From positions 128,001 to 192,000 of the forward strand of contig CAWANH010000001.1 of NCBI GenBank assembly GCA_963783375.1: 64,000 bases of DNA, given 5' to 3'. Origin of the DNA: Candidatus Eiseniibacteriota bacterium. GTDB lineage: Bacteria; Eisenbacteria; RBG-16-71-46; JABDJR01. Below the pieces are notes generated by a model. The model had not been told where the DNA came from. It did no database searches and saw only the letters and a program-made list of their open reading frames with translations. The position numbers and the translations under genes were made by a program. Positions 34,392 through 39,233 of the stretch are shown here, piece by piece (the stretch's first letter is position 1; the number at the start of each line of letters is the position of its first letter).

Positions 34392-35249
34392 TCAGGGCGA
34401 GGCCAGATAGGCCTCGGCCCGCCGGGCCGCCGGGGACCCCGGGGCCGCAGCCCGGGCGCGATCCCACGCTTCACGCGCCTGGCCGGGGAGTCCCAGAGCG
34501 GCGCGCGCGGCTCCCAGGTTCGTCCAGGCCACCGCGTTCTTCGGATCCCTGCTCACCACGGATTCGAGGATCGACCGGGCCCGGTTGAGGTTGTTTCCGC
34601 GGAAGGCCAGGATGGCTCCGAGAACCTCGAATCGTGAATCGTCGGGGTGACGGGCGCTCGTCTCGGCCAGGAGAACCCGCGCGTCGTCCAGCCGGCCCCG
34701 GGCCAGAACGCCGGCCACCAACCAATAGGCTGCATCGGCCGACCCTTCGCCCGTCTCGTAGCGGTGCAGGAGCCGTCCCAGGGCCCGGTCCACCGTAGCG
34801 GCATCCGAGCCGGGGGCGGGGCCGCGAAAATCGCCGGCGGGCCCGGAGTAGGGGGTGGTCTCCGGGAACAGGAGCCCGCTCGCCGAGGACCGGGCGACCA
34901 GGTCCATGACCGGGGCGGCATCCGCGCTCCAGGTCTCAACCTTGCCCGGGTCGATCTGCCGGACCACCCCCCACGCCACCAGCGCCAGGACCGCCGCCGC
35001 GATCCCCCACACCGCGATCCGGCGGCGCGGGAACGGCCGCATCCGGCGGACCGGCGCCCGGGAACCCGGCCTCTCCTGGCGGCTCTGGGCCAGAAGCCAT
35101 TCGCCGCGCCCCCGCACCGATTCCGCGTAGGTCGCGTAGCATTCCCGGCAGGCCACGACGTGGTCGCGGATGGAATCGGCTTCTGGGCCGGCAAGCCTTC
35201 CTTCCGCGAGAAGGGCGAGATCCTCGATTTCGACGTGTTTCTCTCGAAT
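34392..35249 (-). CDS. Zinc-finger (zf-HC2) anti-sigma factor with TM helix and C-terminal TPR domain; start uncertain
   Basis: Frame open upstream of the GTG at 35156 to a TAG at 35262-35264: HVEIEDLALLAEGRL...IRDHVVACREC (HxxxCxxC); TM IAVWGIAAAVLALVAWGVV; TPR-like DPKNAVAWTNLGAARAALG. Confidence 0.8.
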   Translation of the reverse strand: MREKHVEIEDLALLAEGRLAGPEADSIRDHVVACRECYATYAESVRGRGEWLLAQSRQERPGSRAPVRRMRPFPRRRIAVWGIAAAVLALVAWGVVRQIDPGKVETWSADAAPVMDLVARSSASGLLFPETTPYSGPAGDFRGPAPGSDAATVDRALGRLLHRYETGEGSADAAYWLVAGVLARGRLDDARVLLAETSARHPDDSRFEVLGAILAFRGNNLNRARSILESVVSRDPKNAVAWTNLGAARAALGLPGQAREAWDRARAAAPGSPAARRAEAYLASP

Positions 35250-35408
35250 TGGACCGGTTTCCTATGTTGAACGTCCACGAAGACGCGGGAACGGTCCGTG
35301 CCCGTGCCCCCGCCCCCGGGTCCTCCGTCCAGTGTCAGATGGAGGAAACGGGAAGGTCACCGTGGACCGACCCCGCCCTCCAGGCCCCGCCGGCGGCCGG
35401 TCCCACCG

Positions 35409-36332: not shown

Positions 36333-36452
36333 GGGCTTCGTCCTGTATGCTACCAGATGAACCCCGTTCCCGGACGGGGATTCAAGCGCGATCCCCACTT
36401 CCGATCGGATCACTCGCCGATCGTGCGGCCGACCCCTGTGCATCGGATTTCC

Positions 36453-39233
36453 ATGCAACACACCCGCCTCGTCATCGTCCTCGCCGCGCTCCTGGGCCTG
36501 GCCTGCGGGCCGAGGCCGGAACGCGCCCTGCGCGCCCGGGTCCCCGATCTCCCGGCCGAAGACGCCCGGCACCTCCTCTCGGACGGCGACAGCGCCTACG
36601 CCGCCTACGCCCGCGAGGTCGGGGTGATGCGGCTTCTCGACGTGGAATCCCGCCTGGTCGCGGGGCTCTCCAAGCGCTCCCCCGAGGCCTACTCGCGGAG
36701 CCTCGAGGCCCTCGGCCCCTACCTGGACCGGGTTACCGGCCGTCTCGCCGCCGAGTACCACCTCCCCGAGTTCCGGGACGCGCTCGCGTTCCGTCGCCGG
36801 ATCGATCCGAGCGTGGGCCTCGAGTTGGCGGCCGCCGATCGTCGCCGGATCCATCTGATCGCGGATCCCAACCTCTCGGCGGCGGAGAAGGAGTCCGGAC
36901 TCCGGGAGATGCTCCGTATCTACCGGGAAACCGGGTATCGGCCCGGGGTGGTCGTGGCCGAGTTTGCCCTGGCCCGGCAGGCCGACGCCCAGGGCCGGTC
37001 CGCGGAGGGCGTGGGATGGCTGCGACGGGCGGAGCGGCACGCCCGGGAATGGAACCTCACCCTCCTCGACTGCCAGGTGCTGGGAGCCCTTGGATCGTGG
37101 TACGCCGCCCTGCAGAAGCCCGACTCCATGTATCTCTGTCTGGACCGGGCGCTGACCCAGGCCCGGCACGCCCGGCACCCGTATCAGACCTCGCGCATCC
37201 TCACCTTCTACGGCAACTACTACTGGCGGAAGGGACGTCTGATCCCGGCCCGGGACTACTTCCTTGCCGCCTACGAGGCGTGCCGGGAGTACAAGGGGGG
37301 CGCGGTGGACGAACTCCGCATCCTGAACGACACGCTCCTGAGCCTCTACGCCGGGCTCGGTTGCTGGGAGGCGGTGGAGGACCTCCTCCCCCGGGCCCAT
37401 CTCCTGGAGCGGGAGTTCTTCGCCTCCCCCCGCTCCCGGAGCCGCACGTTCTGGATCTCCACCCAGCGGGTGGAGATGCGGCTCCGTTTCGCCCGCGGCG
37501 ACGTGGAGGGGGCCCGCCGGATCTTCGAGAAGGTCAGGGACACCGCCCGCGAGGGGGTGCGGACGACCTATGCCGGTCTCCTGGAATCCTGGTGCGAGGG
37601 CTTGCTGGAAAACGGCGCCGACCGCCGGGCGCTTGCCGCCGCGGAGGAGGGGCTCCGCTACGCGGCGGATCGAAACCTCCCCGAGGCCGAGGCGCGTTTC
37701 GCCCTGGACCTGGCCCAGGCCCAGGTCCGGACCGGGGCCTACGCCGAAGCCGGAGCCGCGCTCGATCGCTTCGTCCGGATGCACCCGAAGAGCGACGACG
37801 AGACCGACCTCAACGACTGGGCCCGCCATGATGCGCTCGAGGCCGCCCGCCTCGATCGGCTCGGGCGCCGGGACGAGGCGACGGCGGCCGCCGCCCGGGG
37901 GGTCGGGCGTCTGGAGGCCGCTCTCGTTTGCATGGACCGGACCCCCCTCGCCTATCTCCGCCTGGGGACTTGCGGCGACCTGCACGATGAGGTCCTCGAC
38001 CTTCTCTCGGACTCCCCGGAGGCGGGCTACGCGGCGGAGATGGAATGGCGGCGGCTGGTGGATTCGATCGGAGCCCGAAGCCGCGGGCGCACCCGGGACG
38101 GAGCGGCCGAGCCCTCCCGGTGGTTCGCCCGGTCCGCGAGCCACGCGCCCGGACCGCGGCCCGGTTCGGACCCGGGAGCCGATCTCCGTAAGCGGCTGAC
38201 GGCCCGTCGCGCCGTCCACCTCGTCTACCGGGTCCAGCCGAGCCGGGTGATCCGCTGGACGGCGGACGGAGAGACCGGGGTGCGCGCGGACACCCTGGCC
38301 GCGACCCCCGACTCGATCCGGGCCTGGGTCGGCCGCGCCACCAGGGCGATGGGAAGATCCCTGGAGGACGCGCGGGGAGTCCCCCCCGAGCTGACCCGGC
38401 TCGCCGGCGCGCTCCTTCCCCCCTCGGTGATCGACGGCACGGCGGGAGCGAAGATGCTTCTCATCAGCCCCGACGGATGGCTCTCCCTCCTCCCCTTCGA
38501 GGCCCTCGATATCTCCGGGGGACCGGCCTATCTCCCGCTTCTGAGCCGATACGAGGTGGCATACCTTCGCTACCAGACCGCGGCCGCCCCGCCGGCCCGG
38601 GGCGATCCGTTGGTGGTGGCGAACCCCGACATTTCCCCCGAGCTCGGCCGACGCTATCCGGCCCTCCGTCCCCTGGCGTTCGACCGACGGGAGGTGTCCG
38701 CGATCTCGACCCGGTATCCCGGAACGCGGGTGCTCGCCGGTCGCGAGGCCACCAAGGCACGGATCCTCGCGGCCTGGGAGAAGGCCCCGATTCTCTACGT
38801 GGCTTCCCACGTGGTCCGCGATCCCCAGACCCCGTACGTGACCTTCATCCCGGTGGCCCCCGCCGGGACCGGGACCCACGATCCGGGCTACATCGACATG
38901 GAGGACGTGGCCGGGGCCGACCTCCGCGGCTGTACGCTGGCCGTCCTGGCCGGCTGCGCGAGCGGGGTTCCCTACGTGGCGGCGGGCGGCACGGCCCCGA
39001 GCCTGGGGCAGGTCTTCCTGGACGCGGGAGCCCGCGCGGTGGTGGAGACGTTCTTCCCGGTTCGCGACGAGGACGCCGAGGCCACCATGGAAGAATTCCT
39101 CCAGGCGTGGATCGGCGGGGGTGACGACCCCGTGGCCGCGCTCACCCGCGTGCGCCGGAAGGCGCTGGCCGACGGCGCCCGCCGCGGCGGATTCGCCTGG
39201 GCGGCGTTCTCCATCGAGCTGGCCGGGATCTGA
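36453..39233 (+). CDS. CHAT-domain (caspase-like) protease with TPR-like helical region; predicted lipoprotein
   Basis: MQHTRLVIVLAALLGLAC lipobox; LLISPDGWLSLLPFEAL, LAGREATKA, LYVASH (catalytic His), LAVLAGCASG (catalytic Cys), FLDAGARAVV...PVRD, WAAF. Confidence 0.87.
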   Translation: MQHTRLVIVLAALLGLACGPRPERALRARVPDLPAEDARHLLSDGDSAYAAYAREVGVMRLLDVESRLVAGLSKRSPEAYSRSLEALGPYLDRVTGRLAAEYHLPEFRDALAFRRRIDPSVGLELAAADRRRIHLIADPNLSAAEKESGLREMLRIYRETGYRPGVVVAEFALARQADAQGRSAEGVGWLRRAERHAREWNLTLLDCQVLGALGSWYAALQKPDSMYLCLDRALTQARHARHPYQTSRILTFYGNYYWRKGRLIPARDYFLAAYEACREYKGGAVDELRILNDTLLSLYAGLGCWEAVEDLLPRAHLLEREFFASPRSRSRTFWISTQRVEMRLRFARGDVEGARRIFEKVRDTAREGVRTTYAGLLESWCEGLLENGADRRALAAAEEGLRYAADRNLPEAEARFALDLAQAQVRTGAYAEAGAALDRFVRMHPKSDDETDLNDWARHDALEAARLDRLGRRDEATAAAARGVGRLEAALVCMDRTPLAYLRLGTCGDLHDEVLDLLSDSPEAGYAAEMEWRRLVDSIGARSRGRTRDGAAEPSRWFARSASHAPGPRPGSDPGADLRKRLTARRAVHLVYRVQPSRVIRWTADGETGVRADTLAATPDSIRAWVGRATRAMGRSLEDARGVPPELTRLAGALLPPSVIDGTAGAKMLLISPDGWLSLLPFEALDISGGPAYLPLLSRYEVAYLRYQTAAAPPARGDPLVVANPDISPELGRRYPALRPLAFDRREVSAISTRYPGTRVLAGREATKARILAAWEKAPILYVASHVVRDPQTPYVTFIPVAPAGTGTHDPGYIDMEDVAGADLRGCTLAVLAGCASGVPYVAAGGTAPSLGQVFLDAGARAVVETFFPVRDEDAEATMEEFLQAWIGGGDDPVAALTRVRRKALADGARRGGFAWAAFSIELAGI

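Follow-up and report, generated by a model that had tools for sequence, protein, structure and literature searches.

A sigma factor, a zinc anti-sigma factor and a predicted exported TPR-CHAT protease in Candidatus Eiseniibacteriota with the layout of a split DdvA

Single-pass anti-sigma factors, such as those of the DegS/RseA/RseP and PrsW/RsiW schemes, are cut outside the membrane and then within it. Here we analyse a three-gene locus in a 64,000-nucleotide stretch of a Candidatus Eiseniibacteriota genome (contig CAWANH010000001.1, positions 128,001 to 192,000; this whole stretch is called the window below), which encodes a sigma factor, a zinc-binding single-pass anti-sigma factor and a TPR-CHAT protease predicted to be exported. 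The closest described relative is the DdvS/DdvA system of Myxococcus xanthus (PMC11506125, PMC6061681; structures PDB 8rot, 8rw5 and 8rlz), for which the published account proposes a site-1/RseP logic and does not show CHAT autoproteolysis (PMC11506125). DdvS is described there as a 182-residue ECF (extracytoplasmic function) sigma factor made of sigma2 and sigma4. Residues 1-304 of DdvA comprise the zinc domain, the transmembrane (TM) helix, a linker, a TPR-like stem and a midrib helix, and the arrowhead tip begins at residue 305 (PMC11506125). The active site is reported to face the TM-proximal linker, where the segment nearest the dyad is 129-140, ~37-48 residues past the TM helix, and RseP is reported to degrade the fragments 1-128 and 1-140 (PMC11506125). 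The same report places a CBASS-CRISPR island under the control of DdvA/DdvS, and it names fused DdvA-like proteins only from Myxococcota and one Comamonas (PMC11506125).

The locus also resembles two other systems in part. In craspase, which belongs to type III-E CRISPR, a separate TPR-CHAT protease, Csx29, cuts a sigma-binding protein (Csx30/RpoE); it is described as cytoplasmic, as gated by Cas7-11 together with target RNA, and as cutting a soluble substrate after Leu or Met (PMC9729208). Separase (PDB 5fc2, 5fc3 and 7nj1), which is eukaryotic and gated by securin, combines a helical solenoid with a caspase-like domain and cuts after Arg in an unstructured linker. In the literature we searched, only papers on DdvA, craspase, SAVED-CHAT and separase surfaced, and none of them described a split lipoprotein form or this sigma factor. 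The available main text of the ECF reclassification contains neither 'CHAT' nor 'caspase' (PMC7826278); its supplements and table S7 of the DdvA report may bear on novelty. What is known is the fused DdvA sensor with its site-1 model, and what is new here is the split, two-protein variant. From gene linkage, domain layout, residue conservation and the fold similarity of a predicted model, we think it probable that the exported TPR-CHAT protease is the dedicated site-1 protease of the neighbouring anti-sigma factor, which it would cut after Arg145, and that RseP then frees the sigma factor. Compared with the DegS and PrsW schemes, RseP is likewise present, but the first cut would fall to a cysteine protease of clan CD encoded in the same locus, in place of a PDZ-serine protease or a membrane protease.

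The three genes and their DdvA-like layout

The genes of the locus, and the elements within them that carry the argument, are as follows.

35409..36332, minus strand: sigma-70-family factor of 307 residues, with Pfam Sigma70_r2 (56-122) and r4 (243-295), both above the curated cut-offs
34392..35249, minus strand: single-pass anti-sigma factor of ~285 residues, with a zinc-binding domain, a TM helix, an outer linker and a C-terminal TPR domain; the start is likely an ATT at 35249
36453..39233, plus strand: TPR-CHAT caspase-like protease of 926 residues, a predicted lipoprotein (helical/TPR region ~22-540, CHAT region ~575-923)
36333..36452, no strand: divergent intergenic region of 120 bp separating the start codons of the sigma and CHAT genes
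36453..36506, plus strand: predicted signal peptide of the protease with an LGLAC lipobox (Cys18 at 36504-36506)
38808..38810, plus strand: predicted catalytic His786 (ASH), kept in 149/150 homologs, with Val as the next residue
38955..38957, plus strand: predicted catalytic Cys835 (LAGC), kept in 149/150 homologs and aligned with the MGC-motif Cys of separase
35139..35237, minus strand: predicted zinc ligands H8, H33, C37 and C40 of the anti-sigma factor (HHCC; P0003 numbering), spaced H33-x3-C37-x2-C40
34962..35018, minus strand: predicted TM helix of the anti-sigma factor, residues 81-99 (KD19 2.41), preceded by Arg-rich residues
34824..34826, minus strand: invariant linker Arg145, candidate P1 residue, within F-R-G here and mostly within Y-R-S-G in homologs

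A preliminary description of this DNA had named the sigma factor at 35409-36332 with a zinc-finger, TM and TPR anti-sigma factor beside it and, divergent and 120 bp away, a CHAT protein of ~926 residues with the LGLAC motif, a TPR-like region and the ASH His and LAGC Cys. Open reading frames, Pfam matches and ligand conservation bear out the first pair, H786 and C835 were recovered in the divergent protein, and the observation of sigma factor, anti-sigma factor and CHAT protein side by side is confirmed. The catalytic pair and the location outside the cytoplasm, which that description had also put forward, gained support from the comparison with homologs and from the structure model given below.

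Pfam matches the CHAT domain at residues 647-919 (E 1.8e-33), and the predicted model of the protease (pLDDT 92, pTM 0.90) has a clan CD caspase-like fold with a conserved His-Cys dyad. Foldseek ranked DdvA first (E 9.8e-16), followed by separase and Csx29. The top VIA match was Csx29 (Z 26.9, root-mean-square deviation (rmsd) 9.0, 503 residues aligned); in the same comparison residues 30-923 of the model aligned to DdvA 308-991 with a Z of 23.9 and an rmsd of 6.6 over 654 residues, at a structural identity of 16-17%, and separase aligned with a Z of ~22 and an rmsd of 3.4-3.5 over ~300 residues. The 150 CHAT homologs that we compared are ~27-39% identical to the query. Five non-catalytic cysteines (C207, C229, C277, C304 and C827) are kept in 47-91% of homologs, and periplasmic disulfides or redox control are possible roles for these residues.

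Export of the protease was predicted from the N-termini of the same homologs. Of the 118 with a residue in the lipobox column, 84 have Cys. By pattern, 56 N-termini have a lipobox, 55 are hydrophobic but show no recognised lipobox, 29 are truncated and 10 have neither feature. On the basis of these classes, export of the CHAT protein looks general and the type of anchor looks varied. The residue at +2 of the lipobox is Gly here, and Asp is found at this position in 1/56 of the lipobox-class homologs. LspA and RseP are both encoded in the genome.

The zinc-binding domain of the anti-sigma factor is matched weakly by Pfam zf-HC2 (E 0.042) and gave weak profile matches to the N-terminal domain of DdvA, to ChrR and to RsiW (E 0.37-0.53); H33, C37 and C40 are present in 46/46 anti-sigma homologs. 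Its C-terminal domain matches TPR_19 with an E value of 4.5e-12. The start of the gene (35247-35264, minus strand) is unusual, in that no ATG, GTG or TTG lies between the in-frame TAG (35262-35264) and the codon for the first conserved His. An ATT sits four codons ahead of this His, and the equivalent codon is ATC in a same-genus genome in which the anti-sigma factor is 82% identical (L021:9211-9225 is its start region). Contigs from sequencing runs barely covered this start and gave no further information on it, and no RNA run was listed. Because ATC occupies the ATT position in so close a relative, a non-canonical start appears more likely than a sequence error, and a weak start of this kind could set the ratio of sigma to anti-sigma factor.

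The locus has in common with DdvA a zinc anti-sigma domain, a single TM helix, a flexible outer linker, a TPR scaffold and a TPR-CHAT unit with a His-Cys dyad. DdvA, however, is one fused chain, whereas here there are two genes, with the anti-sigma factor ending after its TPR domain and the protease carrying a lipobox of its own. The modelled protease aligns to DdvA 308-991, and the 285-residue anti-sigma factor matches the first ~300 residues of DdvA in order and size, by layout only; because of this the module reads as a DdvA split in two near residue 300. No longer, fused relatives of the two proteins were found, which is weak evidence. DdvS, in contrast, lacks the extra helix-turn-helix (HTH) unit of this sigma factor, and no CBASS/CRISPR island was seen near this module among the scanned neighbours. 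Type III-E loci hold Cas7-11, Csx30 and Csx31 together with a cytoplasmic protease; this locus has none of these, and its protease has a signal peptide.

Conservation of the module and its neighbours

The preliminary description had suggested a neighbourhood search for triads of sigma factor, anti-sigma factor and CHAT protein, and in the search that we ran the three genes do co-occur. The sigma factor has matches at E<=1e-20 in 27/201 genomes of the phylum, its own genome counted. Among the 28 sigma loci outside the own genome, a CHAT gene was found within ~8 kb in 27, the sole miss being a locus cut short by the end of its contig. All 28 have a zinc-finger anti-sigma gene (27 by profile and 1 by Pfam). 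Most of the 27 CHAT proteins beside these sigma factors (22) belong to the family of the window protein, and 5 belong to other clades. A search from the other side, with a CHAT-domain profile, gave 42 loci in Ca. Eisenbacteria, Krumholzibacteriota, Latescibacterota and a few others, with a sigma gene in 33 and an anti-sigma gene in 31. Thirteen of the 42 repeat sigma-side loci, several of which were part of the profile query; once these 13 are removed, sigma is present in 20/29. The nine CHAT loci without a sigma gene consist of five that are cut off upstream, one with the CHAT gene in pieces and three intact orphans. One of the three orphan genomes has an anti-sigma gene and an interrupted sigma gene on another contig, the second has, besides a full triad, an anti-sigma gene on its own, and the third has a full triad elsewhere.

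The arrangement seen here, in which the anti-sigma and sigma genes run together away from a divergent CHAT gene, recurs in 35/43 distinct loci; five loci are co-directional or convergent. In a quick tree with 23 other CHATs (midpoint root), the 35 family CHAT domains formed one clade with an SH-aLRT of 100. Membership of the family is large: E<1e-160 is reached by every one of the top 150 representatives at 50% identity. Differences from the same-genus genome cluster at the third base of the codon in each of the three genes (172/80/75, 61/28/29 and 50/20/18 at codon positions 3/1/2). The linkage of the three genes is far beyond chance, and the trio is a conserved module. Decayed copies were also seen, comprising an anti-sigma gene reduced to a stop-containing remnant, a sigma gene that is interrupted and a CHAT gene in pieces (L063:3276-4119; L142:4983-5825; L091). 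A correlation between the CHAT and anti-sigma distance matrices (rho 0.47; maximum permuted 0.30) was discounted as a sign of co-evolution because kin share history. No relative was seen in viral contigs.

In the window the neighbours of the module are PBP1A, a small L12-like gene and hem genes, two of which are the following.

32222..34330, plus strand: PBP1A, convergent with the anti-sigma gene
39251..39520, minus strand: small membrane protein containing a domain that resembles the C-terminal domain of ribosomal L7/L12

The small L7/L12-like gene accompanies the module here and in L021, and was not seen where PBP1A and hemL meet in four relatives. Secreted FlgD-Ig/CTD proteins were considered as a fourth component and rejected, being present in 19/51 loci (kin counted) versus 18-22% of random 8-10 kb stretches of the own genome (G000). 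In L023, L025 and L029, all of one genome family, a peptidyl-arginine deiminase with a FlgD-Ig tail lies downstream of the anti-sigma gene, a curious neighbour for an Arg-directed site, though a lineage-restricted one.

The candidate cut site, the proposed mechanism and its alternatives

Arg145 of the anti-sigma factor lies ~45 residues beyond the TM helix on the outer side. It is kept in 44/46 anti-sigma factors (of the other two, one is truncated and one distant), and in 39/39 and 38/38 in two further sets that overlap with the first. It stands after a G-L-V-L-P-G-like motif, is preceded mostly by Y/F/L/M and is followed by S/G/A/D; there is no ExxR consensus at R145. The linker just before Arg145 varies freely, and in two related genomes it holds a Gly-Ser repeat insertion of ~45 residues (L025:6354-7457, L026). 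An R-G/S after the TM helix occurs in 10/10 TM anti-sigma factors beside CHATs of other clades, two of them from the own genome, versus 14/26 without a known CHAT neighbour, and a stricter pattern occurs in 42/42 from the family, 10/10 beside the other clades and 11/26 without a known CHAT neighbour, in a comparison where kin are not independent and one control genome came without listed CHAT positions. Two small control groups also have an invariant Arg, though not before G/S. On this pattern of conservation Arg145 is likely the cut site, and we treat it as a good lead, not a result.

The mechanism that we propose follows the published DdvA model. The preliminary description had already put the CHAT lipoprotein forward as a possible site-1 protease of its anti-sigma factor; it did not name DdvA, where the idea has its precedent, and the idea gains a candidate cut site here. 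At rest, the cytoplasmic zinc domain would hold the sigma factor, and the outer TPR domain of the anti-sigma factor would dock on the protease and shield the TM helix from RseP. Binding of a ligand to the TPR solenoid of the protease would then align His786 and Cys835, and the linker would be cut after Arg145, ~45 residues outside the membrane. The short stub left behind would be a substrate for RseP, as are DdvA fragments of similar length, and the sigma factor would be released. Because enzyme and substrate are here separate proteins and the substrate has one invariant loop Arg, this mechanism is testable with purified parts and point mutants.

Several observations weigh against such a cut. 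Counted from what we take to be the number of the separase catalytic Cys, the P1-Arg-binding Asp of separase (D2151) falls on position 876, which is variable in this CHAT family; an assignment of D872 to this Asp was withdrawn, as D872 aligns with the first Asp of W-D-V-T-D and the relevant position is four residues on. Two conserved acids, E747 and D872, are shared with 23 and 22 of 23 other CHATs, so the enzyme side gives no independent prediction of Arg specificity. On the substrate side, R280 in the last TPR helix is as invariant as R145, so invariance alone does not mark a cut site, and the motif control is weak, R-G/S being common by chance and the stricter pattern having been defined after seeing the data. 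Three intact CHAT genes stand without a sigma gene nearby, no regulon was found by motif and consensus scans, and autoproteolysis is reported not to have been observed in DdvA itself (PMC11506125). Finally, the Gly after the catalytic His, which every clan CD family is reported to conserve (PMC4357240), is present in 1/150 family proteins, Val787 taking its place here. This loss in the other 149, together with the variable S1 Asp position, would suit a partner that does not cut at all, in which the TPR-CHAT protein binds or guards the anti-sigma factor or relays a signal to it, R145 serves as a docking or inhibitory residue in the pocket, and release comes from another protease or from a conformational change. 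An Arg of the gingipain prodomain is indeed reported to sit uncut in the S1 pocket (PMC4357240), and DdvA dyad mutants are reported still to repress (PMC11506125). We nevertheless regard a non-cutting partner as unlikely, since a His and a Cys each retained in 149/150 proteins at ~27-39% identity are hard to explain without catalysis. Among 23 CHATs of other clades, 11 also have a residue other than Gly after the His, and ten of these are encoded beside TM anti-sigma factors; the small residue that mostly follows R145 is what is seen at a scissile bond.

It is also conceivable, if quite improbable, that the protease is an output of the system and not its trigger, the CHAT gene being a target of the sigma factor and the protease acting on other envelope or foreign proteins. 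The divergent layout of 35/43 loci fits a regulator and its target, no other conserved target gene lies nearby, and some CHAT genes lie apart from the sigma/anti-sigma pair, but five loci have another orientation, an invariant Arg in the outer linker would be left unexplained, and DdvA has the same two parts fused in one chain. Gibbs sampling upstream of 33 sigma genes, mostly in divergent intergenic regions, likewise gave no shared promoter motif (8.8 versus 7.9-8.0 and 9.9 versus 9.2-9.3 bits for real sequences versus shuffles), and a sigma-70 consensus scan of the divergent intergenic region gave 0 sites. A function told by position, as part of an envelope-stress locus tied to PBP1A or of a defence island, is very improbable. 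The preliminary description had taken the adjoining PBP1A as a hint of envelope stress or defence, and DdvA/DdvS is reported to control a CBASS-CRISPR island (PMC11506125). PBP1A, however, adjoins the module only here and in one same-genus genome. In relatives without the module at this site PBP1A directly abuts hemL (G003, G027 and G007) or is separated from it by one unrelated gene (G037), so the module was either inserted between PBP1A and hemL or kept there as an island. The neighbours of the module vary between lineages, no defence family was found among the 55 neighbours scanned of 322 called, no cas genes were seen beside the module among the scanned neighbours, and none of the four window proteins submitted to PADLOC gave a match. 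The position of the module is uninformative on function, and the positional argument is largely refuted.

The extra sigma domain, related loci and wider significance

Regions 2 and 4 of the sigma factor are separated by an insert of ~120 residues, which includes the following element.

35733..35945, minus strand: predicted extra four-helix HTH unit of the sigma factor, residues 130-200 (helices of the model; conserved in the family)

The model is composed of sigma2 (36-124), the HTH unit (~130-200), a long helix and sigma4 (248-302). Residues 126-183 align with the LuxR-type HTH of VpsT (VIA, a middling Z of 7.3, with an rmsd of 1.2 over 52 aligned residues), and the two domains of BldN align onto residues 41-183. 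The insert may correspond to sigma3 or be another sigma4: the top Foldseek match was SigB (E 1e-4), weak Pfam sigma4 matches were found in 4/5 sigma inserts, and BLAST of the insert against the protein's own sigma4 gave no alignment. The homologs, of 257-338 residues, are annotated only with generic sigma-70 names. Like an ECF factor, the protein has sigma2 and sigma4 and a co-encoded anti-sigma factor, but in the model a folded domain lies between the two regions; by this layout it appears ECF-like in regulation, yet it is no minimal ECF. A more distant clade of sigma factors with long inserts (L046-L048) is accompanied by tandem zinc-finger anti-sigma factors with a beta-rich outer domain and by CHATs of ~1250 residues that belong to another clade.

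Further combinations of these parts were seen among the loci collected. The own genome (G000) holds two more loci with a sigma factor, a zinc-finger TM anti-sigma factor and a CHAT of other clades (G000:C28:1442047-1447902 and C28:358590-366578); both have x-R-G after the TM helix, and the CHAT gene of the second is in several pieces. In L100:4236-10584 and L101:4255-8118, a short sigma factor and a zinc-finger/TM/TPR anti-sigma factor (M-R-S-G and V-R-S) are encoded, convergent on one or two exported CHATs. The loci L102:8630-9160, L105:4430-4891 and L108:4443-5054 combine a sigma factor with a zinc-finger protein that lacks a TM helix and has V-R-G or A-R-G in its linker, and with a CHAT without an evident signal peptide, which is probably a cytoplasmic version of the same logic. 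In L050 (G000:C29:1518972-1524623) a CHAT gene follows genes for an ECF sigma factor and a probable Ser/Thr kinase, and in L049 (G000:C28:1212495-1217116) one follows a gene for a probable secreted TPR protein with L-R-G-G, with large FG-GAP-like genes after it. The genome G007 has 12 CHAT matches.

Because the predicted lipid anchor of the protease would fall on the part equivalent to the membrane-distal arrowhead tip of DdvA, an outer-membrane anchor is conceivable by analogy. Beyond the reading that we favour, of a dedicated site-1 protease for the neighbouring anti-sigma factor, one may tentatively imagine widespread, CRISPR-independent caspase-gated switches, although we hold this broader picture to be rather doubtful. 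Exported CHATs of several clades would cut co-encoded zinc anti-sigma factors at x-Arg|Gly/Ser, a protease hung from the outer membrane would reach the anti-sigma factor in the inner membrane as a trans-envelope relay, and the second HTH of the freed sigma factor, whose architecture would be a previously undescribed one, would extend promoter recognition.

For DdvA, the idea that a caspase-like CHAT domain acts as site-1 protease is presented in the published account as a hypothesis awaiting a phage signal (PMC11506125). If the mechanism proposed here is true, bacterial caspase-like proteases would have a part in envelope signalling, distinct from their roles in cell death and CRISPR, in several phyla that are uncultured, and a sigma factor with an extra HTH unit would widen the known sigma-70 architectures.

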